Origin: Amphiscolops sp. MND2022
Lineage: Eukaryota
DNA: 64,000 bases
Assembly (NCBI GenBank): GCA_964187785.1
Contig: OZ076409.1
Coordinates: forward strand, 73,534,001 to 73,598,000
Reading direction: 5' to 3'
Shown here: positions 788 to 60,600 of the stretch, one piece after another
Layout of the letters: each line of letters begins with the position of its first letter
Position numbering within the stretch: the first letter of the stretch is position 1
Translations under genes and position numbers: made by a program
Notes under the pieces: model-generated
What the model saw: the letters and a program-made list of their open reading frames with translations, nothing else
Database searches by the model: none
Told to the model about the DNA's origin: nothing

Positions 788-1753
788 GCCGGAAATTTTT
801 TTTTTCAGCAAAATCTTTGCCATTGGGGGAGGGGCCCCGGATGGCCAGTAGTACGGGATAGCTTCCTACCAAATCCAGGCGGAAAAAACGTGATTTTGGA
901 AACTAGCCGTCAGAATTTGCTCAAATTTTGCATACGGCTTCCTATAACAATCCTAAGAACTAATCCCTACTGGCATTTTGCCCAAAAAACGCAAAAAGTT
1001 GGTCAAAATCTTAGTTTTTTGGTCAAAAAATGGCGTTTTTTCGAAAAAATTTTTTTTCAGAGACAATTACTCGTAACTGGTTCACCCAGCGCAAAAACGC
1101 CTAGCTGATTTATTGTTGGGCACTTCATGAGGAGTGCGTATACAAATTTTCGTCCAAATCGGATGAAAGTTGATTGAGAAATAACAGAAAATTTGAGGCA
1201 TTTTTTTGGAAATTTGTGAAATCCCAGTCTATCTCTGCCGTTTTTTGCCCAGATTTTTTTCCAGACACTCTCCTAAAGACCTCCCCTGGCCGGTTTACCT
1301 CCCAGCAAAACCATTTGGCCCTAAATACGGAGTTTCAGCGTTCTAGCATTCCCGGGCGAAAAGTTGTGGGACTTAGAAAAAATTTTTGGAAACGCAAAAT
1401 GTGTAAAGTCAACTTCAGGCCTCCCAAAGTCAAGAAACTTCCACACAACTAGTATTGCAAGTGAATGCATGTAGAAAGTACGTGAATAGACAAGGAAAAT
1501 GGGCTATAGAACGACTCTGTAGCTTAACTTGACGTTGACTTATGACATTTTGAGTGTGAGCGTCCTATAGGATTTTAATGTCAAAAATGAGATTTTGTAA
1601 GTCATGAGTCATCAAAAACTCATCGGAATACGTTCAATCATCCCCATAGCTGTTCAATCACCGATGTTTAGTAGAGCAACGCCATTATATGTCTTTGGAC
1701 CCATTTTAAAAATTTTCCTTACCGTCTTATTCGTCCGATATCACGAAACAGTT

Positions 1754-1799
1754 GAGTACATTCCATCTTCCCCCTTGTGGGGGAGATGAGAATGTACTC
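1754..1799 (+). repeat. Representative long subterminal hairpin, type 1 (GAGTACATTC-CATCTCCC...GGGAGATG-A-GAATGTACTC)
   Basis: Imperfect ~18-20-bp inverted repeat. It lies about 180-240 nt upstream of the core hairpin in ~1.28-kb units; in long units it lies a similar distance upstream of the degenerate duplicate core. Confidence 0.88.
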
Positions 1800-8900: not shown

Positions 8901-11900
8901 ATTTTTTCGAAAATGTACTCGCCTAAAGACCTCCCCTGGCCGGTTTTATTCCCAGCAAAACCATTTGGCCCTAAATACGGAGTTTCAGCGTTCCAGCATT
9001 CCCGGGCGAAAAGTTGTGGGACTTAGAAAAATTCAAAAATTTTCAAAATTTTTTTTTTCGGTTTTCCGCCCTCCCCCCGAGGGGAAAAGACCCCCCAACC
9101 AGTAATTTGAGTGAATTCATGTGGAAAGGCCATGTTTAGAGGAGAAAAATCCCGTTTAAATCGTCTTTTTATCTTTATTCAACGTTGACTTATGACGTTT
9201 TGAAGGTGATGTTTGGAAGGTGTGAAGCACGTGAAAAGTAAACGTTATGAGTATTTATCTGATCTGAAAGCCATTGAGATGCAATCTGTTTTGCTCAAAA
9301 CGTAATTCATATCCGTTTGGTAGTCATACAACACCCTTTGTTGTCATTTTACATCTTTTTTGTTGATATAAGAAAAAATTTTGAGTATTTATTCATTTTT
9401 TTCTCATCAAATAACTTGAAACAGTTGAGTACATTCCATCCCCCCTTCACGGGGGAGATGAGAATGTACTCGCAAAAAGCCCCAAACTACGGCCCTTACC
9501 TTCCTGAGCTACGCAGTATAAAGATTGCATATTGGTTCCGATATTTTGATAGAGTTATATCTTGGTAATCTGTCTGGGTATGCAGAAAAACCAGCACGTG
9601 CTTTTTTATACCAAGTTGCTCACAACGACATTTATTTTATATCAACGCCCCCATATTTATCAACGCCCCCCGTCCGTGGGCATGCCGAGGCATGCCCTTC
9701 GACGACGTATACCAAGATATGTTCGAGCGCGTTAGCCTAGGTGTATTTTTACACAAAGGGGGATGTTGCGCGTGTGGGGAGGGTCCCTGACGCGCTCCCG
9801 GGATTTCGGATTTTTTAACCTTTACGTACCCATCAAAAATTTTGGGATCTCGAAAACTAGCCGTACGATTTGGCTGAAATTTGGCACACGTACCCCCCTC
9901 GGCACGGTGAAGATGATTCCCTACTGACGTTTTTCCCGCTAAACATTTTTTGTTGACCAAAATAACGGTTTTTGGGGTAAAATTTTCAACTTTTTTTAAA
10001 TTTCATCTTTTATCTCGCCACGGGTACACGCTAGCGCTTCCAAACCTTGCTGACGAAACCTTGCAAACTGTCTCAGGAATGCTGTGTGAAATTTTCAGCT
10101 CAATCGGACTTGAACTCGAGGAGATATAGCGTTTTTCCGGAGCGGGGGGGTTTCATTTTTCTAACGGTCCAGCTTATCTTTGCCATTTTTTCGAAAATGC
10201 ACTCGCCTAAAGGCCTCCCCTGGCCGGTTTTACTCCCAGCAAAACCATTTGGCCCTAAATACGGAGTTTCAGCGTTCCAGCATTCCCGGGCGAAAAGTTG
10301 TGGGACTTAGAAAATTTCAAAAATTTTCAAAAATTTTTTTTTTCGTTATTTGGGCCCCCAAAGTGGGGGAAAAGACCCCCCAACCAGTAAAGCAAGTGAA
10401 TGCATGTGCAAAGCCCTTGTTTGGACGAGAAAAATGCCGTTTAAAACGTCTTTTTATCTTGGCTCAACGTTGACTTATGACGTTTTGAAGGTGTCCGTTA
10501 GATACAGAAAATTGATATTTTGAGTATTTATCCCATCTGAAAGCCATTGAGATACATGTTTTGCTCAAAACGTGTTTCATTGCAGTTCCGCTGTCCATTG
10601 ACACCCTTTGATGTCTTTTGACGTAATTTTCTTTTCTATAATAACAATTTTTCTGTGTATTTATTCATTTTTTTCTCATCAAATAACTTGAAACAGTTGA
10701 GTACATTCCATCTCCCTTCCCGGGGGAGATGAGAATGTACTCGCTAAAGGTCAGGAACTACGGTCTATATCTTCCACAACACAAAAGCAATTGAAAATTG
10801 TTTCAGTTTGTCGCAGAAAACTTTTCTTTTTGCACTCAGTGACTCGGCAAAGTGAGCGATTTTGACCCATATTGAATCTTACTTTACCACAACTCATCTC
10901 TAACGTCAACGCCCCCCACACACATCAACGCCCCCCGTCCGTGGGCATGCCGAGGCATGCCCTTCGACGACGTATAACAAAATATATTCGAACGCGGTAG
11001 CCGCTAGGTGCCGGGATTTTCTATTCGACAAGTTTGCGCGCCTTGGGGAGGGTCCCTTTGCGCGCTTTAAGATCCAGGTGTTTCCAACTCCTAAACGGGC
11101 ATGTGATTTCGACGATCTCCTAAACTAGCCATACGATTTGGCTGAAATTTGGCACACGTACCCCCCTCGGCACGGTGAAGATGATTCCCTACTGACGTTT
11201 TTCCCGCTAAACATTTTTTGTTGACCAAAATAACGGTTTTTGGGGTAAATTTTTCAACTTTTTTTAAATTTCATCTTATATCTCGCCACGGGTACACGCT
11301 AGCGCTTCCAAACCTTGCTGACGAAACCTTGCAAACTGTCTCAGGAATGCTGTGTGAAATTTTCAGCTCAATCGGACTTAAACTCGAGGAGATATAGCGT
11401 TTTTCCGGAGCGGGGGGGTTTCATTTTTCTAACGGTCCAGCTTATCTTTGCCATTTTTTCGAAAATGCACTCGCCTAAAGGCCTCCCCTGGCCGGTTTTA
11501 TTCCCAACAAAACCATTTGGCCCTAAATACGGAGTTTCAGCGTTCCAGCATTCCCGGGCGAAAAGTTGTGGGACTTAGAAAAGTTCAAAAATTTTCAAAA
11601 AAAAATTTTTCCGTTGTTTGGGCCCTCAAAGTGGGGGAAAAGACCCCCCAACCAGTAAAGCAAGTGAATGCATGTGGAAAGCCCTTGTTTAGACGAGAAA
11701 AATGCCGTTTAGAACGTCTTTTTATCTTAACTTGACATTGACTTTTGTCGTTTTGAAGGTGACCGTTAGATACGGAAAATTGATGTTTTGAGTATTTATC
11801 CCATCTGAAAGCCATTGAGATACAACATGTTTTGCTCAAAACGTGTTTCATTGCAGTTTCGCTGTCCATTATCACCCTTTGGTGTCTTTTCACGTAATTT

Positions 11901-28600: not shown

Positions 28601-31324
28601 GAGTGTGAGCTTGCTTTGTGATAAAAAATGCAAAACATGAAAATGGAAGCAAAGTCTCGTCGAAAACCCATCGGAATACGTTCAATACATCCCAAAGCAG
28701 CTTATTTCCAAGTGTCTGGTCCAGCAACACCATTCAAGAACATTTGACCCATTTTTATAAGTTTTGACACCGTATTATTCATCCGAGAGCACGAAACAGT
28801 TGAGTACATTCCATCTCCCTTTCGGGGGAGATGAGAATGTACTCGCTAAAGTCCAGGTACTACAGCCCATAATTGTTTTTATGCAACGCTCTTTATGCTA
28901 GTGTGCACACGTATTAATCTTTGAACTGAATTTTCTCTCGTCGGCACTTTGACTTTGACTTGACATATACTGAATATTTTGTCCTTTTAATATACACATG
29001 ACTAACGTCAACGCCCCATCCTTGCATCAACGCCCACCGTCCGTGGGCATGCCGAGGCATGCCCTTCGACGACGTGCACCAAGATATGTTCGAGCGCGTT
29101 AGCCTAGGTGCCGGGATTTCTATTCGATAAAGTAAGTTGCGCGGTTGGGTAGGGCCCCGTGAGCGCGCCCGTGTCTGTGTTTTTTGAACCTGAATTTGCG
29201 GGTGCCAAAATAGACGATCTCCTAAACTATCCATACGATTTTGCTCAAATTTGGCATACGGGTTCCTGAGACAGATATAAGAACTAATTCCTACTGGCGT
29301 TTTGCCCGGAAAATTTTTTTTGTTGCGCAAACTTGAAATTTTTGACAAAAAAATGCGTTTTTTTTTGAAAAATTTTTTGAGAGGCCATATCTTTTTTCAG
29401 GGTGCCCGGAGCGGGACGCGTTAAACTGATTATAAACTCTACGGTTCACGGGCTGTACGGGCAACCTATTTTTGTTGGAATCCGACTTGTAGATTTTGAG
29501 ATATATTATCAAATTTGGGTGTTTTTTTTCCAATTTTTCGAAAAACCTGGTTTATCTCTGCCGTTTTTTGCCCAGATTTTTTTCTAGACCCTCTCCTAAA
29601 GGCCTCCCCTGGCCGGATTACGTCCCAGCAAAACCATTTGGCCCTAAATACGAAGTTTCAGCGTTCTAGCATTCTCGGGCGAAAAGTTGTGGGACTTAAA
29701 AATTTTTTTTTAAAACGCAAAATGTGTAAAGTCAACTTCAGGCCTCCCAAAGTCAAGGAACTTCCACACAACTAGGATTGCAAGTGGATGCATGTGGAAA
29801 GTGCTTGAATAGACGAGGAAAATGAGCTATTATAAAACTCTGTAGCTTAACCTGACGTTGACTTATGACAATTTTAGTGTGAGCTTGCTATGTGAGAAAA
29901 AATTTCAAAAATTGAAAATCGAAGCTAAGTCTCATCCAAAACTCATCGGAATACGTTCAATCCATTCCAAAGCAGTTTACTTCCAGCTATAGACTGCAGC
30001 AACACTATTCAAGACCATTGTACTCCTTTATATTAGTTTTGACATTGTATTATTCATCCGAGAGCACAAAGCAGTTGAGTACATTCCATCTCCCTTTCGG
30101 GGGAGATGAGAATGTACTCGCTAAAGAACAGGTACTACAGCCAATTTTTGTATTTATGCGAAGCCATTCTATGCTATTGCACATAACAACTATGCTATTG
30201 ACTTAATTTTGCCTACACTTTGCTATGACATATGCTAAACGTTTGGTCCTTACAACAACATACACATGACTAACGTCAACACCACATACTGTTACCAACG
30301 CCCACCGTCCGTGGGCATGCCGAGGCATGCCCTTCGACGACGTATGCCAAATACCTTCCAGCGACGCTCGCGCTCCCCGGCTAGGTGCCGGTGTTTTCTT
30401 CACTTTTGAGGAAGTTGCGCGTGTGGGTAGGGCCCCTGGCGCGCTCCGTTGTCCCTGTGTTTACATCTTAGAAAATTTGAAAAAAAATTGAGATCTCGAG
30501 AACTCTCCTAACGATTTGGCTGAAATTTTGCATGCGGCTTCCTATAACAATTGTAAGAACTAATCCCTAGTGGCGTTTTGCCCGGAAAATTTTTTTTGTT
30601 GACTTATTCACAATTTTAGGTCCGAAAAATGACGTTTTTTCGAAAAAATTTTTTTAAGAGCCCATATCTCGCTCCCAGTTGCCCGGAGCGATTCGTACGT
30701 GGACGTGATATTGCTGGGCACTTCATCAGGAGTCCGTATACAAATTTTCGTCTAAATCGGATAAAAATTGACTAAGTAATAGCCGCAAAACGGACGCATT
30801 TTTCCGACATTTTTCGAAAACCTAGTCTATCTCTGCCGTTTTTTGCCCAGATTTTTTTTGAGACACTCTCCTAAAGACCTCCCCTGGCCGGTTTACCTCC
30901 CAGCAAAACCATTTGGCCCTAAATACGAAGTTTCAGCGTTCTAGCATTCCCGGGCGAAAAGTTGTGGGACTTAGAAAAAATTTTTGGAAACGCAAAATGT
31001 GTAAAGTCAACTTCAGGCCTCCCAAAGTCAAGAAACTTCCACACAACTAGGATTGCAAGTGAATGCATGTGGAAAGTACTCGGATAGACGAGAAAAATGA
31101 GCTATAGAACGTCTCTGGTTCTTAATCTGACGTTGACTTATGGTGTTTTGAATGTGGGCTTGTGAAGGTGTCTAAAAGTAAAAAAATGGAAATCGAGTTA
31201 TTCTACAGCAAAAACTCCTTTAAATAGGCTAATTAGGTATAAGTAACGTGAAACACTGTCGTACGGAACGATTATGATTATAGGCGATACGGTTCGTTCA
31301 AAAAAATTGCCAACAATTTTGCTC

Positions 31325-31404
31325 TTTTTTCTTAGGTTTTTTTGTCTAGGATTTTTTTCTTTGGTTTTTTTGCTTAGGTTATAGGTGTAGGTTATAGGTT
31401 AGGC
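31325..31404 (+). repeat. Short degenerate T-run/TAGG repeat tract
   Basis: TTTTTTCTTAGG TTTTTTTGTCTAGG ... TTAGGTTATAGGTGTAGGTTATAGGTTAGG read directly. Confidence 0.6.
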
Positions 31405-33010
31405 TTTTTGTAAGGCCCTGTTGGCTTTCCCTGTTCACAGCATAGTTTGTTTTTAGTGGCAGAAGAAGACGACGACGACCAAGCATACGAGTTTTTTCTT
31501 TTTTTTTTGGTTTTCCTTGGGGTTAATGGCTATCCCGAAACCAGTGGCTCCTGCTCGAGGGCTTCTCGGGTGCTGGTTTCGTGTATGGGGTTTCCCCCCC
31601 CCCCCAGTAGGTAACCTCTGCCCAAATTTTCAAACGTCCCTCGTAATTCGCATTTTGCCGGTGTCTTTTTTTTACGGGCGTTTCGTCGAAAAAGATAGAA
31701 TTTTTCTCGGAACCGGCAAAATCGGAAAATCAATCACCAAAAATAAACGACGTCGAGAAATCAATCAGACTTATCGGGCGTCCAGTTGCTACAAAGAAGA
31801 AGTACAGATTAACTATGCTTCAGTTTCAGGTGCCTGTCAATCGAGCTCAAGATGTCTTTTTTTGTAACTTATTAAATAGTCCATAAAGTTATTGAAAATA
31901 GGGAAATTTGTAAAGGTTAGTTTTTTTGAATATTGATAGAAATTTTTGATCATATGTACTAGTGCTTTTAAAAGCAACAGGATATATAAATATAAAGTAA
32001 ACTAAATTGCAGTTTAACTGTTCTAATTTCCTTCAGTTTTAGTTTACAGATGAAGACTCGCCATAGCCATACGTAACGTTATCTGAATCGAATTCGCGGA
32101 GACTTTCACATCTGCACATCGTTCGTACGGTCGTTATTGAGCATAAAATACGCTCATTGAAAAAATGTGTGATCGGCGTCGTTCAATTTCTACATGTAAC
32201 TTACGTTCCCTATTATGAAGTCTTAATTTGTTACATATCTCTGCGGGATCTCTGCCATTATATAGTTTTGACCTATCTAAAAATGTTTAATGGTTTAACC
32301 CATCAAGCTATTGAACTATTTGGATGTTGGATGAACCTGTTTTTGATTCTGATCAAAGAGTCAATTTCTCGTCATATTATACGATTATGACACCAGATTT
32401 CTTCTCCAATTTAAACAAAAAATTGAATGTTTGGTAGACTTTTGGAACCCGCAGAGAAAACAGTTCCAATGTAAAGGCTATGTTTATGAATCCTTTGTAC
32501 CAGATGCACTTGAGAATGAATTCTACCAATAAAAGACTTGAAACCTCTTGTACTGTATGTTTGATGTATGTTTATTTTATACTGAGAGTCAAGAAGGTCT
32601 TTAATTATCGCGAGATATCGTTTCATTTTTTCTGTGAAATTCCTATCATTTATCGTTTTTCAGCAGTCAAACAAACCTTGATATTCTTTGATAATACGCT
32701 GCCTACAAAGTTTTAGCGATCGGCTCATTGTTTCTTTTGTCGGAGGTGCGTAAAAATGTAATGATACATCGTGTAAGCGATAACTTCATATTCCAACAAT
32801 GTTTCAACAAATCTCGTGATATACCTAGTAGTTCTCGATCATCACACTTTCAAAGCTATGATGTTTGAAACTGGTCGTTTTCGCTATCACCAGGATTTTT
32901 GAATTGCAGTTATTCTGAATTTTTTTAATACCTTCAAAATACTTCTTTTCTCGAAGCGTTTCGTGACAACTTATGTTTCAAACGTGTATCTGATTGTGCG
33001 AAACTTCACC

Positions 33011-33028
33011 TTTTATTTATTTTTTCAG
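33011..33028 (+). promoter_or_regulatory. Probable 3' splice acceptor (cis or trans) just before the first ATG of the large ORF
   Basis: T-rich tract TTTTATTTATTTTTTCAG|G ends 4 nt before ATG 33033; inferred from the spliceosomal consensus only. Confidence 0.5.
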
Positions 33029-33032
33029 GGTT

Positions 33033-36000
33033 ATGTCCACGAGAGGGCGCGGTCGTCCAACCCGCAACCGTGGAAGCCGAAAAACGTGTTCACGATGTAG
33101 CTCTTTCGTGCGCTCTGATTTAACTTTATGTTCACGATGCTCCTCAACAGATGTCCAGTTGCCGAACGGGAATGAAGATGAACCACATTCGTCCAATGTG
33201 GAAGAAATATCTGCAACGCAACAGTTTGTCACTTGTAGCCTTTGCAGCTCGAATGAACAAACTAATGGAAATCTTTGTGCTGATTGCAGTCCTTTTGTTT
33301 TACCAGAGTGTACTTCCGTTGAATGTCAGAAATGTCGACGAATCCCTTCCACACCACTGAAAACAGCAACAATCGGAGAAATTAAAGTTACACAATTTGG
33401 ATGTCGTCTATCTAGAACAAGCCATGACTTAATCAACCTTTGTGACGAATGTTTCCATTTCTCCACTGGAGGATCATCTTGGAAAAATGCCTGGCCTGCT
33501 GTAATTTTGGACTTTTTAATTGGTAAGTTTAGTGGACTAGTCTCGAATAAACCTTTCCACAGTGTCTTACCTCAATCAATGTTGCAACAATACCAACATC
33601 TGCGTCAAAATATTGGTGATCCTGATAGAGTTTTCAACGATTTAACACCGAAACTGTCAACCTTCAAGAACCTAAAACAATCTCTGAAAGTTGAAGATGT
33701 CAAAGCGGCCCATAACACATTTTGTTTCCCGGAAGTAAGATGTCCTTTTGGGTGTTCTGAGTTTGTTGGTCAAACAGGCACTGTGCCTTTCCATTACTTT
33801 TTAAACAAGTTGGACCCCAATTTCAAATTCAAAGTAACAAATTGGAAACTCCGTCTCAGATGCGTTCGCCCAGATTGGCTAACAAGCTACATTCACAATG
33901 ACATGTTCATTATCAAACCGCATGTCGTTATTGACAATGTGAAAGGATTATGTATAGCAACATGCAGTTTCCATAACGGTGGATCCAACAAGCTATTCGT
34001 ACATCCGCCATGTAACCCGACCGGTAGACTGCCATCCAGAAATTCTGATCGTTTGGGACCAGCGACAATTACTTACAACTCATACAAACCTGCTAAGCCA
34101 AATTACTCAAGTCATACGTATTCCATGGGCGTAGCAAAAGGAGGCTTCACAGGGATTAGTTCAACAACAATAGGATGTAAACGGAAATGGGACATTGCTT
34201 TTGGAATGAAAGAAGTGTCCAGAGAGTCTTTGTGCTGCAATAATCGATCAGACATCAAACCTCTTCTACAGAAACTAGTTAAACAAGGTGAATTGTCACA
34301 AAATCTTTGCGACAGTATATCATCAGCGGACGCCATGCCTGAATGTCATGAAATTTCAAACTGCCTCAGAAATACAACATCTGTTCCTTTGGAATCTTCT
34401 CTTGCGGTGAAAAAACTACAAGAAAGTGGTATCGAAGTGAAGTATTTCCCTATTTTTGCACACCCCTTCAACAATTACGGATGTGATCCTCCCGAATTGG
34501 CTATTGTTAATTGTGAAAGACTGTACTTGTGGAACTTTTTTGTCATGTTTGCTTTGAGTTCTTCATTCCATTCTTCGTTACTGGAATCTACTGTTCAACA
34601 AAGTAAAGAATTGGCGAAAACATTTCACCAAATGTTTTGTGAACCGGGAAAGTCGAGTTCCAAGAAACAAAAAGAAGATTTGACACGGTCTCTAGAATCC
34701 TTATCCTCGAATGCTTCCGGTGACTTCCATAGAGATATCACACAACTTTTAACGAGTATAACTTTTTGTGACATTGTTAGTGTCAATGCTCGGGACGACG
34801 TGAATTCACTCTTGACGAACAACAATTACAAGAACATTGTGATCTTCACGTCCAACTCCAGAACAGGGACACACACTTCATATTTGCCAGATCGAGTATC
34901 AAGTCCTAATGGAAACGTCACTTATGAACTGAGATCAATTGCGATAAAAGACGGCAATACAATCAAAACTGTAGTGAGACATGGCAAACAATACAATTGT
35001 TGGTGGACTTATTCGAGTAACAGTTATCAACCTTTACAAATCAACGTTGACGACGTCACATTAATGGGTCAAATACATTCCAATTGGATTACTTGTCACT
35101 TTGAACATGTTGATTCGCTCAAGTTGCGTGAAGAGAAATTCCGCTATCTGGAGTACTTGGGAGGACAAGGTAAATTCATATGTAACCAACATCAAATTCC
35201 TTTAACTGTCAGCAGCAAAAAATCAAACTGCACCTGTTCTATTCTTGCCAACTGTCTCAGAAAAGCCGCATGGCAGTGTCCGTCCTCAGACTGTACGTCT
35301 GGAGTTTGTCGTTCACATTTCAAAAGTGACACTCAGTCGGAAAGAGTTTTCGTTCATCCAACTTGCAACACCATAATGGCGGACAGTGTCCCACGTGTAG
35401 AAACAACAGAAGATCCCGAGCAATTGGTCGAACTATCAGATACCGAGTCAGAATACGATGAGTTTTCTTTTGTGCATTTTGCTACAGACTCTGGTGGAAT
35501 TGACAACTCAGAATCTTTGAACGCAACCGATTCTGGAGATATACCATATGTTCATGAGTCACTTCAAAGTAATGTTCCCACACACATTCTGTTGAACACC
35601 GATTGCCATGTTCTTCAAAGGCATAGGTACCGAAACGAACGAAACAAAAGTTGTTCCCGAATTTTGCAAAATATAGTGGCATCTACCCCAGGTGATTCAA
35701 TTCCTCTTATCTACCCTGAGGCAACAGTTTTCCCCACGCAGTATTTCCACGAACAGGAGGACGGTACAATCACTGGCGCAGTACCATCATCACTTTACAA
35801 TGACAAACAAACCAAACGATTCCACTTCGCAGAAATAGAGGACCACAAAAGAACTTCTTTGCTAAATCCAAATTTACTGCAGTCAACAGATGTGAGAAGC
35901 ATACAAACGTCTTTCGACACTGTGTTTAACAAGCGCCTCACTTTTGCTGATACCAGATTGGTTCTTAACCGTGGCTTCCAGGAAGTGAACTCCAAAATGA

Positions 36001-39000
36001 GCAAGACTATATCTCCAGACAACACAAGATTGCAGTTCGATAAAGCGGACTCTAGAGTGCGTGTCAACGAATTGGCGTCCCTCCTGTCAGAAGAGCCTGC
36101 AACTTTTTTCCTGACTCTCACGTGCAATCAAAAAGAGCACTTTGGAGTTGGCCCAATTTTTGACGCATTGGAGGAAAAGTATGACAGAAACAATACTGAA
36201 GAATGGTATGGTGCCGTACAAGCTGAAATTGTCCTTTTAACAAGAGCATGGTATCGATCAGCCGAAGCTCTAATGGAATACATTGAAAAATCGCCAGATA
36301 AACCCCTCGGGACTGTAACAAAGTTGTGGTACAGATATGAATTTCAGTCAACTAAAGGTAACTTGCCACACATTCACGCCGTTATTTGGACAAGAGAGAG
36401 CATTGACGAATTAAAATACAAAGTTTCTTGTTCTGGTTCATCTGCTTTATTTGAATTGAAGAAACTCGCAAACGAGACAGAACTCATACAAACAAATGAC
36501 GTAATGGAGATTTGGAATGACCTGATGACAGTTCAAACGCATTCATGTGAAAAAGCTGGTTTTCGATGTCATAAAGTCACCAAAGAAGATGGATCCACCA
36601 TATGCAGAGTACCACGATACCCTTTCAGTTCTGAATACAAATGGAGAAAAGTTCCTTCTTGTCACTCTGAAGAAGCTCTTGAAAAACTGTTTTTTCTAGA
36701 CTTGGCCGTGCCCTCACAAAGTCGTGACAACACTTACGATATAACAAACTTGCTCCAAGGCGGGAAGCATGAGTATCCTGCATCCACCAATGAACACTTG
36801 TCGCCTTTCAACACTCTCTTGTTTCTGCTGACAAAATCTTCCCAGAATCTGCAGTTGTGTGATGAGTATTTATCTGCTCGATACATCGCCAAATATGCTG
36901 CAGGAATAGAAGAAAGAGCAGATGCCCATGTAGATCCCATTACTTTCAAGGACATCAAAGTACAGACGAACGGCATTAAAAATATCAAAATATCGGGATC
37001 TAAACTTAGAAGTAACATAACAGAAAGAAAAACACTGGTTCAAATAATACCTCTTGTAGAATCAATCTGGTGGCTATTAGAGTTTAATTACGTGTACAGC
37101 TCCGTTACATTTGTGCACATGAATACCCACGAAAAATCGGAACGAGCATCAATTGTGAAGAACACTTCCCGGAATCAAACAACTGTATCTTTGCCACTTC
37201 ATGTTACAAAACTTTCTACTTTTCCACCTCATCGGAATTATACCCAGTCACAATTGCTCTTACTGGAAGATCATTTGGCCAGCGACTATACGACTTGCAA
37301 AATGTCCATTTTCAGTGGCAGACCTCCTGCACTACTTTTTGTTGACAACCCTAAACTATATTTCACATGGTTTCAACGTAAACAGCTCAAAAATCCTGAA
37401 ACCAAAATTAAAGAAAATGCCAACTCCTCAATGTGGATTGACATATTTGGATTTGCAGTGTATTTGCGCAGATACTATTTGGATTCATTCAGGGACTATA
37501 TACAGAAATGCAGATCAGAAGGACATGCAAACTTGACACGCTTCGAACAGGATTCAACTTTGACTTTTTTGCAGACTGACACTCATGGACTAAAAACAAT
37601 AGAAGATAGACCTGTTCAGGTGGTAACATCAAATATTTTACCAATCAGCCCCCAGAAGTTTCTCATTCATTACGTACTCTCCTACGGTCGATTTGAAACG
37701 GAAATTGATCTCTTCAACAATGCCAGCATGATTGATGTTTTCCAACACTGCAAACTGCTTCTAAGAAAGAGCTCCTACACTCAACAAGACGCGTTACCAC
37801 TGATTAGAAACTACGTTTTGGATGAACTGAAATATCTTCCCGGTGCCAGTCGCTCCTTTGACCGCCATCTGTTAGCCAGTTTTGAGTTATTCACAAATCT
37901 TGTTACAAACAATCAAATTTATACAGAAGCACTGCCTTCCGTTTTACATACCGCAATTCACGAGAATGCATCACACGCCTACAATGTTTTCAACGCTCAG
38001 AAGAAGGAGAGATGTGTCCAGGCATGTCTTTTAAATCCACCATTGGCACCGTTACAACCATACCAGACACAGCTTCTGAATGCCACTCGCAGAAATCCTT
38101 TTCTTTTCGATTACCCGTTTCCTCGAGCGGAGGGTCAATCAGAAGATTCCTACATGTTTCAACAGCAAGTTTTTGATGTTTGCTCTGAAAGATTGGACAC
38201 TTATGTTAATGGAAGTCAAGGATTCGTCAAGCATCAAATGTTTTTGGGACGTCCCGGAAGCGGAAAAACGCTGGTGTGCACGATGCTTTTCATTAAAGCC
38301 GTTTCAAAAGGCTTAAATTGCTCAATAACGTGTTTGAGTGGTGAACGTGCCCAGCAACTTGGAGGGGAACACATTCACAAAATGTTCAAGTTCAAAGTCA
38401 ACCACTCTTTAGTTCCCGAAGTGATGGCGAGTCAAAGTGTGAAGTGTTTATTAAGGGATGTCACAAGATTCACCGATTTAGAAAGATTAGAAGTACTGTT
38501 CATAGACGAAGTAGGCCAATTAAACGCGGAGTTGCTGTGTGCCATGGAACTTGTATTGCAGAATGTCCGTGACAACAAGCTACCTATGGGCGGTGTACTA
38601 ACACTTTTCACCGGAGATCCAAAGCAATTGAAACCACCGGATGGATCCCTGGTTTGGTTGTCACCAAAAATGCTAACCAACTTCGAGTTTCATTATTTCT
38701 TACACTACGTCAGAGCAGTTCCTGGCCTCTTAAGAGAGATTTTGAGCAAATTGGATGAAACCAATATTGGTGAGACTGAGGCTGCCGCTTTAGCAAGAAT
38801 AATTATATCCAATTGCGTTATCAAAGCTAATTGGGATGACGAAAATAACACCTTCGCAATGAGAGTATTCAGCACCCGAGCAGCAGAAAAAACAGCAGTC
38901 GCACAACACAGTGAAAGAATTTTGAATGACGTTAACTGTCCATCCATCATATTTGCAGCTCAGGATGAACAAAGTTCAACTGGATCATCCATATGGTTAC

Positions 39001-40031
39001 CAGCTTCCAGTCAAAATACGACATTCATAGACAATCATACAATCACTCCCCAAAGGCTTTTGCTTTACAGAGGAGCACTTTTGAGATTCACAGCCAATGT
39101 TCCAACCATAAATGCCAGACAGGGTCAGTTGTGTCTCCTTCTGCAATTTCCTGATTCTACAGCAACAACTTTGAATGTTTTGATTGCACCACCTGGATGC
39201 CGTGCTGCTACTTCTACGGACGAAACCTGTTTGCTAGCTTCTGGTTGGCAGAAAGTTAAGGTATCAAAAGTATTCACACCCGTCATAACAAACAAAAGTA
39301 CCTTTCTGCGCAGATACTCTTTTCCCTTGAAAAATTACGTCGCCTCCACGATTCACAAGTGTTTGGGAGATACCTTCCCTAAAATTGTATCGAAGGTTTC
39401 GCTTAATGAATCCAGTTACAAAATTTGGGAAAAGGAGCAACTGTTGGTTCTCCTCAGTCGGGTAAGCAAGCTAGAGGACATTACCTTCATTGGAACTGAA
39501 TCTGATCTTCTAGCAACCTTGACTGCCGTCATACAAAAGGAATCTTGTTGGAGCCACTTCATCAACAGTCTACTTCTAACACTCGCTTCACCTACTACGA
39601 CTCACACTTCGACTTTTAATGTGCTGACTACAAACTTTCAACCTTGGAACATCGTTCTGCCTGATGATAACACTGGTTTCGTCTACATTCTAGTTAGCAC
39701 GAAAATTACCAACGTATTTTACATTGGGGAAACAGTTTGTCTACGGCGAAGACTACGCGAACATAACTCTGGCCAAGGAGCGGAATCAACACGACCCATA
39801 GAAAGAAGGCCATGGGCTGTTCTAGCATTTGTGACTGGGTTTTGCACAACAAACATGTTAACTAACATGCGACAGCGAAAAGAACTTGAGAGAACTCTGA
39901 ATTACCAAGCATCGCTGATAGGACCGAACATTGCAGTGCCAAGCATTTTCCGTGTGATACAAGATTGCGTAGTATCGTACTCATCCGCCAATGAACTTAA
40001 TCTGAAAGTTATCCAATGTGGTAATATTTAA
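33033..40031 (+). CDS. Helitron-type Rep/helicase transposase (HUH Rep + Pif1-like SF1B helicase) with Cys-rich N-terminus and C-terminal GIY-YIG nuclease, ~2332 aa from the first ATG
   Basis: Uninterrupted 7-kb ORF (the track starts at TTG 32994; first ATG is 33033). Rep motifs FFLTLTCN, YRYEFQSTKGNLPHIHAVIW and YIAKY; helicase motifs GRPGSGKT, FIDEVGQL, GDPKQLKP, ASTIHKCLG and LLSRV; C-terminal GFVYIL...FYIGET...RRRLREHN. Confidence 0.93.
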   Translation: MSTRGRGRPTRNRGSRKTCSRCSSFVRSDLTLCSRCSSTDVQLPNGNEDEPHSSNVEEISATQQFVTCSLCSSNEQTNGNLCADCSPFVLPECTSVECQKCRRIPSTPLKTATIGEIKVTQFGCRLSRTSHDLINLCDECFHFSTGGSSWKNAWPAVILDFLIGKFSGLVSNKPFHSVLPQSMLQQYQHLRQNIGDPDRVFNDLTPKLSTFKNLKQSLKVEDVKAAHNTFCFPEVRCPFGCSEFVGQTGTVPFHYFLNKLDPNFKFKVTNWKLRLRCVRPDWLTSYIHNDMFIIKPHVVIDNVKGLCIATCSFHNGGSNKLFVHPPCNPTGRLPSRNSDRLGPATITYNSYKPAKPNYSSHTYSMGVAKGGFTGISSTTIGCKRKWDIAFGMKEVSRESLCCNNRSDIKPLLQKLVKQGELSQNLCDSISSADAMPECHEISNCLRNTTSVPLESSLAVKKLQESGIEVKYFPIFAHPFNNYGCDPPELAIVNCERLYLWNFFVMFALSSSFHSSLLESTVQQSKELAKTFHQMFCEPGKSSSKKQKEDLTRSLESLSSNASGDFHRDITQLLTSITFCDIVSVNARDDVNSLLTNNNYKNIVIFTSNSRTGTHTSYLPDRVSSPNGNVTYELRSIAIKDGNTIKTVVRHGKQYNCWWTYSSNSYQPLQINVDDVTLMGQIHSNWITCHFEHVDSLKLREEKFRYLEYLGGQGKFICNQHQIPLTVSSKKSNCTCSILANCLRKAAWQCPSSDCTSGVCRSHFKSDTQSERVFVHPTCNTIMADSVPRVETTEDPEQLVELSDTESEYDEFSFVHFATDSGGIDNSESLNATDSGDIPYVHESLQSNVPTHILLNTDCHVLQRHRYRNERNKSCSRILQNIVASTPGDSIPLIYPEATVFPTQYFHEQEDGTITGAVPSSLYNDKQTKRFHFAEIEDHKRTSLLNPNLLQSTDVRSIQTSFDTVFNKRLTFADTRLVLNRGFQEVNSKMSKTISPDNTRLQFDKADSRVRVNELASLLSEEPATFFLTLTCNQKEHFGVGPIFDALEEKYDRNNTEEWYGAVQAEIVLLTRAWYRSAEALMEYIEKSPDKPLGTVTKLWYRYEFQSTKGNLPHIHAVIWTRESIDELKYKVSCSGSSALFELKKLANETELIQTNDVMEIWNDLMTVQTHSCEKAGFRCHKVTKEDGSTICRVPRYPFSSEYKWRKVPSCHSEEALEKLFFLDLAVPSQSRDNTYDITNLLQGGKHEYPASTNEHLSPFNTLLFLLTKSSQNLQLCDEYLSARYIAKYAAGIEERADAHVDPITFKDIKVQTNGIKNIKISGSKLRSNITERKTLVQIIPLVESIWWLLEFNYVYSSVTFVHMNTHEKSERASIVKNTSRNQTTVSLPLHVTKLSTFPPHRNYTQSQLLLLEDHLASDYTTCKMSIFSGRPPALLFVDNPKLYFTWFQRKQLKNPETKIKENANSSMWIDIFGFAVYLRRYYLDSFRDYIQKCRSEGHANLTRFEQDSTLTFLQTDTHGLKTIEDRPVQVVTSNILPISPQKFLIHYVLSYGRFETEIDLFNNASMIDVFQHCKLLLRKSSYTQQDALPLIRNYVLDELKYLPGASRSFDRHLLASFELFTNLVTNNQIYTEALPSVLHTAIHENASHAYNVFNAQKKERCVQACLLNPPLAPLQPYQTQLLNATRRNPFLFDYPFPRAEGQSEDSYMFQQQVFDVCSERLDTYVNGSQGFVKHQMFLGRPGSGKTLVCTMLFIKAVSKGLNCSITCLSGERAQQLGGEHIHKMFKFKVNHSLVPEVMASQSVKCLLRDVTRFTDLERLEVLFIDEVGQLNAELLCAMELVLQNVRDNKLPMGGVLTLFTGDPKQLKPPDGSLVWLSPKMLTNFEFHYFLHYVRAVPGLLREILSKLDETNIGETEAAALARIIISNCVIKANWDDENNTFAMRVFSTRAAEKTAVAQHSERILNDVNCPSIIFAAQDEQSSTGSSIWLPASSQNTTFIDNHTITPQRLLLYRGALLRFTANVPTINARQGQLCLLLQFPDSTATTLNVLIAPPGCRAATSTDETCLLASGWQKVKVSKVFTPVITNKSTFLRRYSFPLKNYVASTIHKCLGDTFPKIVSKVSLNESSYKIWEKEQLLVLLSRVSKLEDITFIGTESDLLATLTAVIQKESCWSHFINSLLLTLASPTTTHTSTFNVLTTNFQPWNIVLPDDNTGFVYILVSTKITNVFYIGETVCLRRRLREHNSGQGAESTRPIERRPWAVLAFVTGFCTTNMLTNMRQRKELERTLNYQASLIGPNIAVPSIFRVIQDCVVSYSSANELNLKVIQCGNI
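36099..36905 (+). other. HUH (Y2) rolling-circle initiator catalytic core within the large ORF
   Basis: Motif I TFFLTLTCN (~36102-36128), motif II H-I-H (36369-36377) and motif III Y-I-A-K-Y (36882-36896), in the order known for Helitron Rep. Confidence 0.9.
38241..39480 (+). other. Pif1-like helicase domain within the large ORF
   Basis: Walker A GRPGSGKT (38247-38270), GGEHIHKMF, Walker B FIDEVG, PMGG..GDPKQLKP, FPLKNYVASTIHKCLGDT and QLLVLLSRV. Confidence 0.9.
39675..40028 (+). other. GIY-YIG endonuclease domain, SLX1-like, fused in frame at the C-terminus
   Basis: GFVYILVS-x6-FYIGET-x3-RRRLREHNSGQGAEST-x5-RPWAVLAFVTGF...KELE follows the SLX1/GIY-YIG pattern VY.L.S...YIG.T....RRL.QHN...GA..T...RPW.....V.GF...E, recognised by eye. 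Confidence 0.82.
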
Positions 40032-40042
40032 ATATATTTCTG

Positions 40043-40084
40043 CGCTTGCCCGGATCGCGCAGTGATCCAAGGGCAAGCGTCTAG
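40043..40084 (+). other. GC-rich hairpin followed by CTAG, 11 nt after the stop codon
   Basis: CGCTTGCCC-GGATC-gcgcagt-GATCC-aa-GGGCAAGCG, then T-CTAG. A possible poly(A) signal ATTAAA lies at 40169-40174. Confidence 0.7.
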
Positions 40085-42429
40085 ATACTCATTACAATTT
40101 GCTCATGTTGCCCTCTTTTGTTATCTTCATGTAAAACTGTTGCTTTGAATTGTTGCTATTGTAAAACCATTAAACTTTAACTTACAGCTCCATATCCTCA
40201 ACTTCGTCGACAGATTTTTTCTTTGAATTACTACTTGAAAGCTCCTTCAATTACTACCTTTTCATATATTGGTTATTTCACAATCTCTTTTCGTCATTCG
40301 AAGTTCCAGTGTCTTTATTTAACGAATTTTGCTCAACAAACTGCTGATGGGCCTTTTACTTCGAAATTGTTCGGCAATTCGCTATTTTATCACACATGTT
40401 ATCATCGCACTCCTCTTCTCAACACGCTGACATTGATGGGGCTGGTGTCTGACCCGCAAGGGTGGTAACAGTGCCAATACCTCACTTTGTTTTGCCCAGA
40501 GAAGCTTCAATTTTTTGCCGATCCCTCGTAAAGCTTTTGTTTCCCCCATAATGTCTGTTTCCAGTCCACGCTTTACATTGTTTGTGCTAACTCTGCATTG
40601 ACTTGCATCATCTGGAATGAAGAAATCTGAATATAGTACATGGTTCAAACTTAACTCGAATAAATCTCAAAAAAAATTGAGGTTTTTTCTCATAAATTCT
40701 CAGGATTTTTCTTGATAAAATCTCTTTTACAAAATAAAAGAATCTAAAATGTTATAATTAACCCTAAAAAATATCTAATTTGCTTGAAGATTTGAGTTTT
40801 ATTATTTGAGGATTTAGGAGTTTTTCTCGTATTTTATTCAAAAGATAGTCATCAGTAATTAAAGTTATGATCGATTTCTCTAAACATGTTTTAACTTTTT
40901 TATGAAGAAAGTGACAGTGAATATATGTAGAGTTAGTTTCATCTCTTTGGTCAACACGGGATTATTATCAGTCATTTTGAATCATAATTTATTTTGTTAT
41001 CAGTAACAATTTTGAATTAGACTTCTCCATTACGATTCAGCCTAAAATAGGCGTTATATGAAAAGTTCAGTAGGTAAGTTTTTTGTTTAATTATTAAAGT
41101 TGGATGACAGTTTCGTTCTTTATCATCAAAAAACAAATTGCTGCAACAGTGTTTGCAATAAAAGTTATTGGGGACAGGTCAAAACATTTTTACTTTCTTT
41201 GTTTGAACCATAGAACGATCAGCTAAAGTGTTTCCTGTTGGAAAAGGAAAACCGTCAATCGGGACACAGTTAAACGATGTTTCCTGTTCGTCCGACTTCA
41301 CTTACCCTCCGCCAAACGCTCAAGTATTCGAATGTTTGCATGGAAACTTTTTGTTCATAATGGATACTGCTTTCAAGTATCGATTATTGATGACAAATTG
41401 ACTTTTTGATGAAGGGACTTTTTGATGAAAATGAATAAAAGAAAAAACATTGAGCGATCATGCTTCAACTCACTTGTCATTTCTGTCATCCATATCACAC
41501 AATTCAAGCACTTCCTTCATTGGTCGCACCCATGATACTCCAATCAAAAAACCAGTTTTTTAAATTGATAATATGTTCAAACAGTGTCGGACGCAAAGAG
41601 AGTCGAAAATAAGTTTTTTGAACTGGCCATTTTTCATAATTCTTTGCAAACGATTCTATTACAGCTTTATTCTCCCTAGCTTCATTCGTCAACATTTATC
41701 TCTAGAAGTGATGAACTCACGCGCATAACTAGTATCAGACCTGCCTTCAATACCGATATGTCCGTCTTGCAGCTACTGTTGCTTCCTTTTGAACTTCATC
41801 TTTGAATAAAGAACTGTTGTACATAACTCTTCATTGCATCCTGAAAATGACTCCAGCTGAAACAAGTTAAACTTTTATTTTCTTTGTTGCTCGCATTGTA
41901 AATAATATAAACAATTCGGTCATATGGTTTGAACAGATTAAAAAAAAAGAGCATTGCACCTATTGCAATGAACGCGGACATAAATACAAATTGAAGATTG
42001 AATTTTTCAAACCTCTGTTTTTAGCCATTCAAGTTGAAACTAGGAAATTAGATAAAGTAGGCTAAAGGCTAGTGTACAAAGTGTTAGTTCGTCTTTTTAG
42101 AGCCGTGAATCAGTTATAAATGCGCTCAAACTCTTTCTGTAAAACATAATGGAAACATAAAAATCTAAACAAGTGCTTAGCAACATAACTGTTCTTACTT
42201 TAATCATTTATGGAATTATTTTTTTTCCATTGCGTAGGAGAATCAATCAGTTACGTTATGTTCGAAATTGACGTCCCCATCTATTGCAACTAGAACGTCA
42301 GCTGCTATATGTGCATCAAGCCGACGTGCCAAACCATTTATCAACGCCCACCGTCCGTGGGCATGCCGAGGCATGCCCTTCGACGACGTATGCCAAATAC
42401 CTTAAAACCGACGCGCACTCTTTCGCTAG

Positions 42430-43821
42430 GTGGTTGGGGCGGTCCCCAGAACGCACAAGGAGGCGCGGGGAGGGTCCTGCGCCGACGTAGAATAATTTCA
42501 TATAATACTAGTATCCTACATGGGTGTTTTAGAGGCGATTTTGGAATCTAACCGTAGGATTTGGATAATTTTTTGCATGCGGCCATAACTCAAAATTCTA
42601 AGAACTTTTTCCTACTGTCATTTTCCCCGCAAATTGTTTTTTGTTGACTTATGGCCGAAAAACCGGAAATAACGTCCTTTTTAGACGTTATATCCGAAGT
42701 GTCGTCATAACTTTTTTCCAGGGCATGCTAGCGTTCTCGTTCACTTTTACAATTAGTTGCAGCATCTCAAAATACAACTGGTGGAAAATTTTGGTTGCAT
42801 TCGGATCACCCCCCACCGAGATAGAAGGGTTCCCCCCTCCAGTTTTACCCCCCAAATTTGCAAAATAGCCAATTTTGAGCATGAAGCCGAGGATTTAGCG
42901 TACCCATACCCTCCTGATGTTTTGTTGTACGTATTGGGGTCAATCTGACGACATGTGTGGTTTTCACCCCCAACCCCCCCCCCTTGGACCGGAAATGACA
43001 CTTTTTTGTGTTTTTTGGCAGAATTTAGCCTTTTTCATTATTAGGCAGTCGTTTTAGGGACTCCTAGCAGGATATCGAAATTGAAATACAACCTGATCAC
43101 AACCCAGTGACAACATAGTGGCCACTTGGAGGTATCATGATGACCGGAAGTGGGGTCAACCCCCCTTTTTGTGACCGCTTTTTGACCTTGTGCACCAAAA
43201 TGCCAACATCTTGAGGCCTAATGAGGCATTCAAATCTGTACCAAGATAAAATGTTAGACAACCGAAGTCCCGGAAGATCTTTAGCATATACCGGAAGTTA
43301 CCCCCCATGACCGGAAGTTACCCAATGTGACCGGAAATGGTCCAAAAATTAATGTAAAGTTGAGTTTTTCACTATTTCAAGACCACTTAATTGAAACTTT
43401 TCAATCTATAAACTAGCGTACTGGCTTGTTTTGCTGAATTTATGGAAATTGATGAGCTCTATCGCCCCCGATAGCCTTCGAAGTTGACCTTGCGTCAACT
43501 TTGTAGGCTATCGATAAAGAAAAATGAACAACAAAGTACATTGTTGCTCTCGTTTTTTTCCCGTTGTTTTTCCTCAAACATTCTTGAGACATATACATGG
43601 CCGTTAGTTGAAATCAATATTTAGCCCATGTTATAGCTGGAGCAGCGAAGCGTTACACAGACTAGTGTGGTTTTGAAATCACACTATTTAAATTAACAAC
43701 TGACCGTCTTAGTCAACTCCACACATTCATACCAACGCCCACCGTCTGTGGGCATGCCGAGGCATGCCCTTCGACGACGTATGACGAATCCACTCCAACG
43801 ACACCCGCAGTCCTCAGCTAG
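42430..43821 (+). mobile_element. Non-autonomous cassette family S, ~1.39 kb (also 43822-45210, 46482-47869, 47870-49258)
   Basis: Head GTGGT(T/C)GGGGCGGTCCCCAGAACGCAC, type-2 long hairpin (43469-43513) and tail GACGAATCCA...CCCGCAGTCCTCAG-CTAG. Confidence 0.8.
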
Positions 43822-57600: not shown

Positions 57601-60600
57601 GAAATGTCCAGAGATGCACAAATTTACAGTTTTTTTGCCCACAAAACACTATTTTACGAAACCCAAAACTTTTTGCCAAAAAAGTCAAACTTTGTCCACA
57701 CAACTTAGATTGCAAGTGAATGCATGCGGAGAGTACTTGAAATGGTGGGAAAAATGAGCTATAGAACGCTCATTTACGACAACGTGACGTGGACTTAGGA
57801 CATTTTGAAAAAGTACGAAAAAAAAGAACAACGGTTCCAAAACAATCAGTTTGTAGTAAATGGCCAATAACTCCATACACAACCTTCCGCGCAAGCTAGT
57901 GTCCAAGTACGTTTTTGTTACCCGTGAACAGCGCAACAAATAAGTAAAAGTAAAACTTTATGTAGAGAATCGTCGGAGAAAGAAATAACGGGATTTTTTG
58001 TCACATTTAAGAGACAAAATTGAAAAATTAGTCTATTCCTGGCATTTTACCTAAACTTTTTCGACAGTACACATACAGGAGGTAAAATTCGCCCAATACC
58101 ATGCCTAACAAAACTATTTGATCCATTGGCCGCAATTTGAGCGTTCCACCTTTCCCCAGTCATAAATTATGGGACTTCGAAATTTTTCAAAATTTCCATT
58201 TTTCAACAAAATTTCAAATTCAGGCCTCCCAAAGGTAAGAAAGTTCCACACAACTAGGATTGCAAGTGGTTGCATGTGGAAAGTGCTCGAACCGACGAGA
58301 AAAATGGGCTTTAGAACGTCTCTCTATCGTAACCTGACGTTGACTTATGATGTTTTGAATGTGAGACTGCTACGTGCTCGAGAAGTGTAAGTGGAACATA
58401 TGTCTCGTTGAAAACTCATCGGAATACATTCAATGAACCCAATCACCCTAAATTGCAGTTTCCTAGTGCAACAACGTCTGTCAAGGACCTTTTTTGATAA
58501 GAGTCGAAATTATTATTAAATTCAGTTAGCAAGAAACACTTGAGTACATTCTCATCTCTCCCCATCGGGGGAGATGAGAATGTACTTGCTAAAACGGCTT
58601 CTTTGTTTTCATGCGATGGATTCTGTGCCTTGCCACACATATAACTTTGTTTTGTGTGACCTTGCGTATATAATTTGACTTGTCATAATAAATTTTTTCT
58701 CGTAAATTTACGTAAATCAACAATGCATCTACAATGCACCTTCAACGTCAAAGTCAAATAAATATAGCTGGCCACCGTCCGTAGGCAGAGCAAGGCATGC
58801 TTTTTGACGACGTATGCCGAAACACAAACGCAAACAAAACTGCTGAAAATCAGAAACAGTGACCAACAATTTTGACTGTTTGACATATGGTAGGTTTTTA
58901 TATGGAATTTACACATCACTGATATTTCACAACATTTCAGCTGACACCCACCTACCACTATCAACGCGCACCGTCAGTGGGCATGCCGAGGCATGCCCTT
59001 CGACGACGTATGGCTAACACCTTCAGCGACGCCCCCGCGCTCCCCCTAGGTGGTCGGGGTGTGTTTCCCAGCCAATTTTGCCGCGCGGGGAGGGACCCGT
59101 TCAGCGGCCCAGGTCATTATTTTTTTTACATTAAAAAAAACGATACCCCGGAAAGCGATTTCGAAACCCACCCGTAGGATCCCTCTGAATTTTTGCATAC
59201 ACCTCCGTATAACAGATGTAAGAAAAAGTCAGCAAGGGCGTTTTCAATTCTAAATGGGGAATGTTGACCAAAAAGCGCAATTTATGTCCAAAAAAATGCA
59301 ATTTTCCGACTTTTTTATTTTTGACGGCCCACAGCTCTTTTCCAGATGCCCGCCCAAGTCATAAACCGGAGTAAACTTTTGTTGGGCACTTCGTGAAGAA
59401 TCTTTAGGGTGATTTTCGTTTCAATCCTATTTCCTGACGTTGACTTCTATGTGACGCAATTAGGTGCAAAATTGGGTGAAAAAACGCAATTTTGGTACTC
59501 AAGGGCTCATAACTCGTTACAGAGTCAATTTAGCAAGTTGATTTATATCGACGTTTTTGTTGCCTACTTATAGGCAAACAATTAAGCAGAAACAAAATTT
59601 TCTGTGAGACATCGTCAAAAAAAGATATCACTTGTTTAAAAAACGCAAAAAATGTAGTTTTTTGGATTTCGTGAAAAAAATATAAAAAGGTGGCGTCTAC
59701 CGGCTGTTACAGGTAGCGGGTATTTTATTGCAGTTAATAACTCACCTTTAGTAGTCATTTACTTGGATGGTTTTTGATTTTGAGAAAATGCATGATAACT
59801 TTCATTTTTTGCCTCACCAATATTGACACCCACGACTACCGTCGATTTTTCGAGTTCACGTATTCAACTGGATATACTTTTTTTCCAGTGCGTTTTACGG
59901 TCCTCACACAGGAGTGCAAAAATGTTGCCCATCTTAAACAGAAGGCATATGGTGAGTTTAGAGTAATTTGAAAGGTTTTCGACATGTCCAGAGATGCACA
60001 AATTTACAGTTTTTTTGCCCACAAAACACTATTTTACGAAACCCAACACTTTTTGCCAAAAATGTGAAACTTCGTCCACACAACTTAGATTGCAAGTGGG
60101 TGCATGCGGAGAGTACTCGAAATAACGAGAAAAATGAGCTAACGAACGCTCATTTACGACAACTTGACGTGGACTTAAGACATTTTGAAAATCACAAAAA
60201 AAGGACAACGATTTCAAAACAATCAGTTTGTAGTAAATGGCCAATAACTCCATACACAACCCTCCGAGCAAGCTAGTGTCCAATTACGTTTTTATTACCT
60301 GTGAGCAATGCAACAAATAATCAAAAGTAAAAGTTTATGTAGAAAATCGTCGGGGAAAGAAATAACGGGATTTTATATCACATTTAAGTGACAAAATTCA
60401 AAAATTAGTCTATCCATGGCATTTTCCCTAATATTTTTCGACAATACGCACACACGGGGTAAAATCTGCCTAAAACTGTGCCTACTAATACTATTTGATC
60501 CATTGGCAGCAAATTGTGCGTTCTAGTTCTAGTTTTCCCATTCAAAAATTATGCGACTTCGAAAATTTTCAAAATTTTCATTTTTCAACAAAATTTCAAC

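Follow-up and report, generated by a model that had tools for sequence, protein, structure and literature searches.

Helentrons (HLE2) are described by Thomas et al. 2014 (PMC4067079) as elements in which a Rep-Pif1 open reading frame (ORF) carries a C-terminal, in-frame endonuclease, and which are accompanied by non-autonomous partners; in their Rep domain, an aromatic-x-Arg signature precedes motif 2. We analyzed a 64,000-nucleotide stretch of the Amphiscolops sp. MND2022 genome (contig OZ076409.1, positions 73,534,001 to 73,598,000, forward strand; hereafter the window), which contains an autonomous transposon with all of these features inside an array of non-coding cassettes. The Arg of the motif 2 signature is invariant in the clade to which this transposon belongs. 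An OTU domain, present in 3 of the 19 relatives scanned, is also shared with Helentrons, as is, as a lead only, a separate OB-fold-like ORF in relatives. However, the element has a GIY-YIG nuclease in place of the apurinic/apyrimidinic endonuclease (AP-EN), a CTAG 3' end, no TT target and no asymmetrical terminal inverted repeats (ATIRs), and its Rep motif 2 has Leu, not Ser, before Pro-His, plus extra residues.

With canonical Helitrons such as Helraiser (HLE1) and with proto-Helentron-Pi, the element shares a 3' hairpin followed by CTAG, the lack of inverted termini, an HUH nuclease with two tyrosines (Y2) and a Pif1 helicase, whereas its 5' end is GT(G) rather than TC or TT and insertion is not between A and T. 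The clade profile matches Helraiser in the helicase only (E 1e-14), more weakly than it matches bacterial Pif1 (4e-23). The Paramecium Helitrons (PMC13085455) also form a divergent clade with a strict target, an orientation bias and many ORF-less derivatives; compared by description, they differ in their telomeric-repeat target and CCAA ends, and "GIY" is absent from the main text of that paper. The IS91 family (PMC10288648) shares the HUH rolling-circle lifestyle and oriented insertion at a tetranucleotide, but is prokaryotic and has neither helicase nor GIY-YIG domain. The only link between GIY-YIG and Helitrons found in the open literature consulted on the subject, as far as the text available goes, is in HELIANO (PMC11417382). 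Its HelenSM92 of Sphagnum, compared by description only, is an HLE2 family with a captured GIY-YIG domain and, as features of its own, terminal inverted repeats and TT sites.

The fusion of a Y2 HUH Rep to a Pif1 helicase makes the window's element Helitron-like. Because it mixes features of both groups (its 3' end is HLE1-like, its 5' end is not TC, its motif 2 signature is mixed, and it has no AP-EN, DUF6570 or ATIRs), we file it neither under HLE1 nor under Helentrons. AP-EN and DUF6570 were absent from the query protein and from the 19 of its 33 homologues that were scanned. A first-pass annotation of the window had placed the nuclease where Helentrons carry their AP endonuclease, and in this it was right: the domain lies C-terminal to the helicase within one ORF.

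The C-terminal nuclease domain

The transposase and its domains are as follows; residue numbers count from the start of the stop-free ORF at 32994.

39675–40031, plus strand: C-terminal SLX1-lineage GIY-YIG nuclease domain, aa 2228–2345; predicted catalytic set intact, no RING
30385–42429, plus strand: autonomous element, array unit 24; 12,045 bp from CTAGGTG junction to CTAGGTG junction
32994–40031, plus strand: stop-free ORF of 2345 codons, first ATG at 33033; the only long ORF of the window
33033–40031, plus strand: intronless RepHel-GIY transposase ORF, 2332 aa from the ATG
36090–36900, plus strand: HUH Rep domain with H1126/H1128 and Y1297/Y1301 (Y2)
38238–39503, plus strand: Pif1-type SF1B helicase, from Walker A K1758 to motif VI
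33033–35570, plus strand: N-terminal region rich in Cys and conserved across the clade; without a significant Pfam or NCBIfam name

Pfam finds Helitron_like_N (1033–1131), PIF1 (1749–1881) and GIY-YIG (2228–2287) in this order. The GIY-YIG match has an E-value of 1.2e-7 and scores 32.3 bits against a curated cut-off of 22.6; the fragment alone gives E 3e-9. The hallmark residues Y2231, Y2243, G2245, R2253, H2257, N2258 and E2299 (codons at nt 39684, 39720, 39726, 39750, 39762, 39765 and 39888) are all invariant across 15 aligned domains. The in-frame GIY-YIG motifs with Tyr, Arg, His and Glu that had been read from the letters alone are thereby confirmed, and the Pfam score, the invariant residues and the clade-wide occurrence rule out chance similarity or a frame artefact.

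In a single-sequence search of solved proteins, the nearest matches were one bacterial UPF0213 protein and five SLX1 sequences; with the family profile, Slx1 and HIGLE came out on top (E 1e-10 to 3e-8). An alignment-based AlphaFold2 (AF2) model of the domain reached a predicted local distance difference test (pLDDT) score of 92.4 and a predicted template modeling (pTM) score of 0.86; AF2 run from the single sequence was uninformative (pLDDT 35.5). Foldseek on the alignment-based model returned 11 matches at E≤1e-3, every one an Slx1 or HIGLE chain. VIA-align placed At-HIGLE first (Z 11.4, root-mean-square deviation [rmsd] 2.5, 108 aligned), followed by two Slx1 structures (Z 11.2, rmsd 2.5, 106 aligned; Z 10.5, rmsd 2.4, 103 aligned); the next match had Z 7.1, and UvrC had Z 4.5 (rmsd 3.8, 79 aligned). 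The AF2 model matches giant-virus GIY-YIG proteins (best E 1.5e-7) and Slx1 about equally well. R2253 corresponds to Arg36 of Candida glabrata Slx1, by position counted in the phmmer alignment. In that protein, Arg36 and Glu79 are named as active-site residues (PMC4407285), and the profile match to 4xlg 11–91 together with the fold match suggests that E2299 is the equivalent of Glu79.

The domain shares with SLX1 and At-HIGLE the fold, the active-site residues and an RPW...GF...E motif; it differs in having no RING and in being fused C-terminally to a transposase. A similar arrangement is described for MSH1, which carries an appended Slx1-type domain, and in Penelope-type elements a GIY-YIG domain is fused to reverse transcriptase (PMC1564403). 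The ORF stops 46 residues past the Glu without a Cys cluster, and no RING finger was found. Pfam detects no reverse transcriptase in the ORF and no NUMOD or helix-turn-helix modules, TIGR01453 scores only 19.1 bits against a cut-off of 56, and no sequence-reading domain lies C-terminal to the nuclease. Penelope-type GIY-YIG domains have a Cys/His zinc motif; there is no Cys between the GIY and YIG motifs of the window's domain. An origin from Penelope or from a homing endonuclease is ruled out by the Pfam and TIGR01453 scans and the structure comparison. Given the fold matches, the residue set and the lack of RING, NUMOD or reverse transcriptase, the modeled domain is assigned to the SLX1 lineage of GIY-YIG nucleases, with an apparently complete active site. 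The SLX1-like character proposed in the first-pass annotation is thus upheld by the profile and structure checks.

Occurrence of the fusion across the clade

A homologue search with residues 1700–2345 returned 34 proteins, including that of the window. When representatives at 50% identity were searched with a profile restricted to the Rep region, 452 clusters matched at E≤1e-30, and the best 150 were analyzed. Sixty of these reach the helicase end, and a GIY-YIG domain follows directly in 59. Among these 59, all seven hallmark residues are present in 52 and the Y, Y, G, R, H, E set in 55; four are degraded. Because the Rep profile was drawn largely from metagenome loci and clustering at 50% collapses the near relatives of the query, these counts over-represent the distant branch of the clade. 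In the reciprocal search with the GIY profile, a helicase end preceded the domain in 68/68 longer matches with at least 60 residues upstream and in 22/28 short ones.

The ratio dN/dS of the domain lies between 0.07 and 0.31 in 9 of 11 locus pairs; one pair is identical, one is saturated, and several others are near saturation. One relative is named, from the diatom Attheya, and the top Atlas cluster (0.98; GIY-YIG 98%, PIF1 85%) is mostly diatom among the four members with a phylum. Judged from these proteins, the GIY-YIG fusion is a clade-wide feature and not a one-off capture. We lean towards regarding the domain as an accessory nuclease that defines this clade, a divergent group among the Helitron-like rolling-circle transposons.

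The cassette array and its junctions

Outside of about 31200–42300 the window is repetitive, with all repeats on one strand. The array comprises 36 full units arranged head to tail, 35 of them non-coding cassettes (1.26–2.40 kb) and one the ORF-bearing unit 24.

785–30384, plus strand: left array, 23 non-coding units of 1.26–1.40 kb, head to tail
42430–63639, plus strand: right array, 12 non-coding units of 1.27–2.40 kb, head to tail
30381–30387, plus strand: left junction CTAGGTG; the exact cut point within the 7-mer is assumed
42426–42432, plus strand: right junction CTAGGTG
42342–42388, plus strand: 47-bp subterminal motif A, including a hairpin; almost unchanged at each of the 37 ends that bear a junction
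30417–30444, plus strand: 5'-terminal stem-loop round a conserved GG(G/T)AGGG box; stems vary by unit type, and it is also found after the element at metagenome locus L001

CTAGGTG occurs 37 times in the window, always at a junction and never on the minus strand; CTAG occurs 187 times. From the CTRR rule, we assume that the cut within the 7-mer is CTAG|GTG, so that units end in a hairpin followed by CTAG and begin with GT(G); no cut within CTAGGTG yields a TC start. Motif A has 38 copies in the window, 37 of which have CTAGGTG 29–42 nt further on, and the stem-loop with the GG(G/T)AGGG box is found at 35 of the 37 unit 5' ends. The 38th copy of motif A (58766–58812) is degenerate, with 13 mismatches and no CTAGGTG behind it, and lies 196 bp before a normal copy. 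The unit at 9741 lacks 6 nt directly after the junction, and the unit at 7193 is without the 5' box. Some 220–430 nt before motif A, 27 units have a second conserved long hairpin with a variable loop (e.g., 30075–30120), which is missing from the autonomous unit and from units of the 1.39-kb type.

For pairs of junctions that are near-identical upstream but differ downstream, the spacer separating motif A from CTAG goes with the upstream unit in 7/9; for the reverse pairs, near-identical downstream, it goes with the downstream unit in 0/11. Among 55 high-identity repeats, 12 start and five end at a junction (expected about 1.2% per end), none starts in motif A, and four have their end within it or immediately upstream. 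Copies of single whole units are found far apart in the array, with 98.7–99.2% identity and with their ends at junctions, and the first 733 bp of unit 24 are 98.5% identical to cassette unit 21, the similarity fading beyond. Array neighbours have been shuffled precisely at CTAGGTG, and the self-joined cassette array recognized in the first-pass annotation is real. Ends of high-identity repeats also cluster inside units, at about +105–130, +290, +428 and +593, which suggests modular exchange points.

By its termini, the element is not a Helentron: none of the 36 units has ATIRs by a perfect 8- or 12-nt match, and the mean equals that of shuffled sequences. The 5' end partly resembles motif A, which had raised the idea of ATIRs; this comparison led us to reject it. 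Rfam had no match anywhere in the window. Viral contigs contained no relative (66 pattern stretches, none confirmed) and no match to motif A.

We compared 28 metagenome loci, on contigs of 1–26 kb. At L001, the element has an intact nuclease and is 33% identical to the query and 62% to protein P0011; it ends in CTAGGTGG, followed by the 5' signature of the window's units, where the contig stops. L001 is the only one of the 28 loci with the window's junction and 5' signature. Loci L012 and L013 carry one distant, nuclease-intact element with unrelated left flanks, which end in CTGG and CTAG before GTAG; the two sequences hint at a CTRG target across the clade. Apart from L001's junction, no kilobase cassette arrays were seen in the eight flank regions examined of distant nuclease-intact relatives, which is weak evidence because these contigs are so short.

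Loss of catalytic residues near the query

The HUH, the two Tyr and the helicase residues are conserved almost throughout the 34 aligned proteins; the nuclease is intact in 20, degraded in 13 and absent in one. In a quick maximum likelihood tree of clade members only, the distant branch is nuclease-intact throughout (15/15), whereas only 5 of the 19 members of the branch with the query are intact. All seven closest families (60–62% identity to the query) lack the catalytic Arg and have intact Rep and helicase residues, and in a second subclade (P0014–18, P0023) most catalytic residues are gone. An N-terminal OTU domain is found in P0014, P0015 and P0018, which belong to this subclade with the most decayed GIY-YIG domain.

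Three of the Arg-less families have at least 5, at least 6 and at least 11 full-length copies among the members listed, one of them at 98.8–100% identity. Divergence of the domain in Arg-less families is 0.018 vs 0.029/0.009 for Rep/helicase in one comparison and 0.052 vs 0.042/0.044 in another. When proteins whose contigs are equally long are taken to share a contig, twelve of 45 contigs carry two or more families. A second family is present on 11/24 contigs with degraded families vs 4/24 with intact ones; this is an indirect proxy, in which assemblies may differ and one cluster is represented by 15/24 members. Intact families are also on some of the contigs with degraded families, which makes trans-complementation possible.

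Role of the nuclease

From the array and the domain comparisons, we infer, with somewhat more belief than doubt, that Rep targets the junction and that the nuclease resolves branched single-strand insertion intermediates. After Rep has nicked the plus strand at CTAG|GTG, the nicked strand would be peeled off by the helicase and a circle would form at the next CTAG; Rep would then join the circle into a site of the form CTRG|GT. Elements of this host lineage would favour the end junctions of other elements, a preference that would build a mosaic array of cassettes mobilized in trans. The tethered SLX1-type nuclease would cut the branched product, at a flap or on the strand that faces the inserted single-stranded loop, and so let repair synthesis fix the insertion. 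It would act by structure and not by sequence, aiding targeting without being its source. In the host lineage with arrays, catalysis would have been lost on several occasions, and resolvases of the host or sister families with an intact nuclease may stand in for it. Helraiser is reported to form a plus-strand end junction and to re-cut it precisely in vitro, dependent on the catalytic Tyr (PMC5876387).

The first-pass annotation had suggested that the domain nicks the target junction or resolves branched intermediates at the cassette hairpins, and that this explains self-targeted array growth. Fold and active site make the resolving role plausible; the explanation of array growth is not supported. 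A GIY-YIG domain that nicks the junction or the cassette hairpins and thereby directs insertion into the array seems unlikely to us, even though hairpins flank every junction and could extrude as branched substrates, and an analogous role has been hypothesized for the Helentron AP endonuclease (PMC4067079). The Arg is lost in the seven nearest families, three of them multi-copy as above, and the domain is best kept in the distant branch, where no arrays were seen in short flanks. The indirect shared-contig proxy also speaks against such a role. Slx1 is described as cutting branched DNA and leaving plain double-stranded, single-stranded, nicked and gapped DNA uncut (PMC4407285), and the nuclease has no sequence-reading domain behind it. 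The position of the break coincides with the CTRR end, which in Helitrons is cut by Rep itself, and Helraiser, with no such domain in the literature searched, cuts its own junction precisely (PMC5876387). Similarly doubtful is that the conserved job is the binding of branched DNA or terminal hairpins, the domain being a tether for the transposase and cutting being secondary. Domain length, the Asn and the RPW motif are retained in 11/13 degraded proteins (P0007 and P0008 end soon after RPW), and the domain's divergence in Arg-less families is comparable to that of Rep/helicase; however, the whole catalytic set is kept in 55/59 representatives at about 25–35% overall identity, and binding alone would not need it. 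We give still less weight to a nuclease that works outside the transfer step, breaking arrays or empty sites and thereby triggering homologous repair that copies the element, or that is a passenger. Its corollary, growth of the array by ordinary rolling-circle amplification and unequal exchange, we regard as equally improbable. Tandem Helitron arrays are known (PMC5876387, PMC5148889), self-inserted Helitrons are too (PMC5148889), and the chimeric units with many repeat ends inside them fit such growth. Against these readings stand the strict domain position and purifying selection, the recurrence of whole units bounded by junctions at distant places, the avoidance of the longer 47-bp shared motif by exchanges, and the lack of a long-target recognition domain.

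Several points weigh against junction targeting by Rep with resolution by the nuclease. Helraiser transposes without a GIY-YIG domain, so the nuclease step is not obligatory, and the proposed mechanism is built on sequence and predicted structure. Both elements seen at an array junction, in the window and at L001, have an intact nuclease, as a directing nuclease would predict. The CTRG flank preference is based on two loci. Array pairs are not independent and most repeat ends lie inside units; ordinary recombination therefore also acts. The domain of families without the Arg has diverged no more rapidly than Rep/helicase, suggestive of a non-catalytic role. Trans-complementation would make the Arg losses uninformative, and P0004 and P0006, whose nuclease is presumed inactive, lose the Arg alone and have basic neighbours. 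The Arg-less families are known from proteins alone, and their association with arrays is therefore presumptive.

Relation to published elements

We found neither this clade nor an SLX1-type tail described in the literature, Repbase and closed journals being outside the scope of the search. As far as their text was available, PMC6431247, PMC3627910, PMC13565253 and 10.64898/2026.09.17.752431 contain no link between Helitrons and GIY-YIG; PMC9071465, PMC1564403 and PMC10288648 served as background. We tentatively suggest, as a possibility short of an expectation, that the clade is an unnamed major eukaryotic rolling-circle lineage outside HLE1/HLE2, with hundreds of 50%-identity clusters and diatoms among its hosts. 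It would be characterized by an SLX1-type resolvase tail, CTRG|GT targeting and, in one host lineage, a self-targeting, integron-like excision and re-insertion of cassettes at its own end junction, the nuclease fixing single-strand insertions as double-strand ones.

The literature consulted offers only hypotheses on the completion of single-strand Helitron insertions and on the function of the C-terminal Helentron endonuclease. The question becomes testable because another nuclease, unrelated to that of Helentrons, occupies this position in natural intact and Arg-less versions, and a defined 7-bp junction substrate is at hand. If the reading is true, a HUH transposase from eukaryotes with its own end junction as target would be a candidate for placing kilobase cassettes site-specifically and without breaks, and own-junction targeting would be a route from transposon to satellite DNA.

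Other features of the element and its relatives

A pyrimidine tract and CAG at 33020–33028, just 5' of the ATG, resemble the splice acceptor of an intron in the 5' untranslated region. Short tandem repeats containing TTAGG lie at 31325–31403 in the 5' region of the element, and similar ones are found at the 3' end of L003.

Downstream of the transposase, relatives have a conserved second ORF (about 350–460 aa, with a Cys cluster) that has no Pfam match: L001 4032–5099, L003 10095–11372 (minus strand), L008 9075–10283, and also L004, L010, L011, L012, L015 and L016/L017. The window's element has no tblastn match to it. Its Atlas neighbours are OB-fold single-stranded DNA-binding proteins (0.88–0.89), which we take as a lead only. 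At L022, positions 1–9900 hold a truncated copy of the element outside any array, among host-like genes (GAPDH, filament-like).

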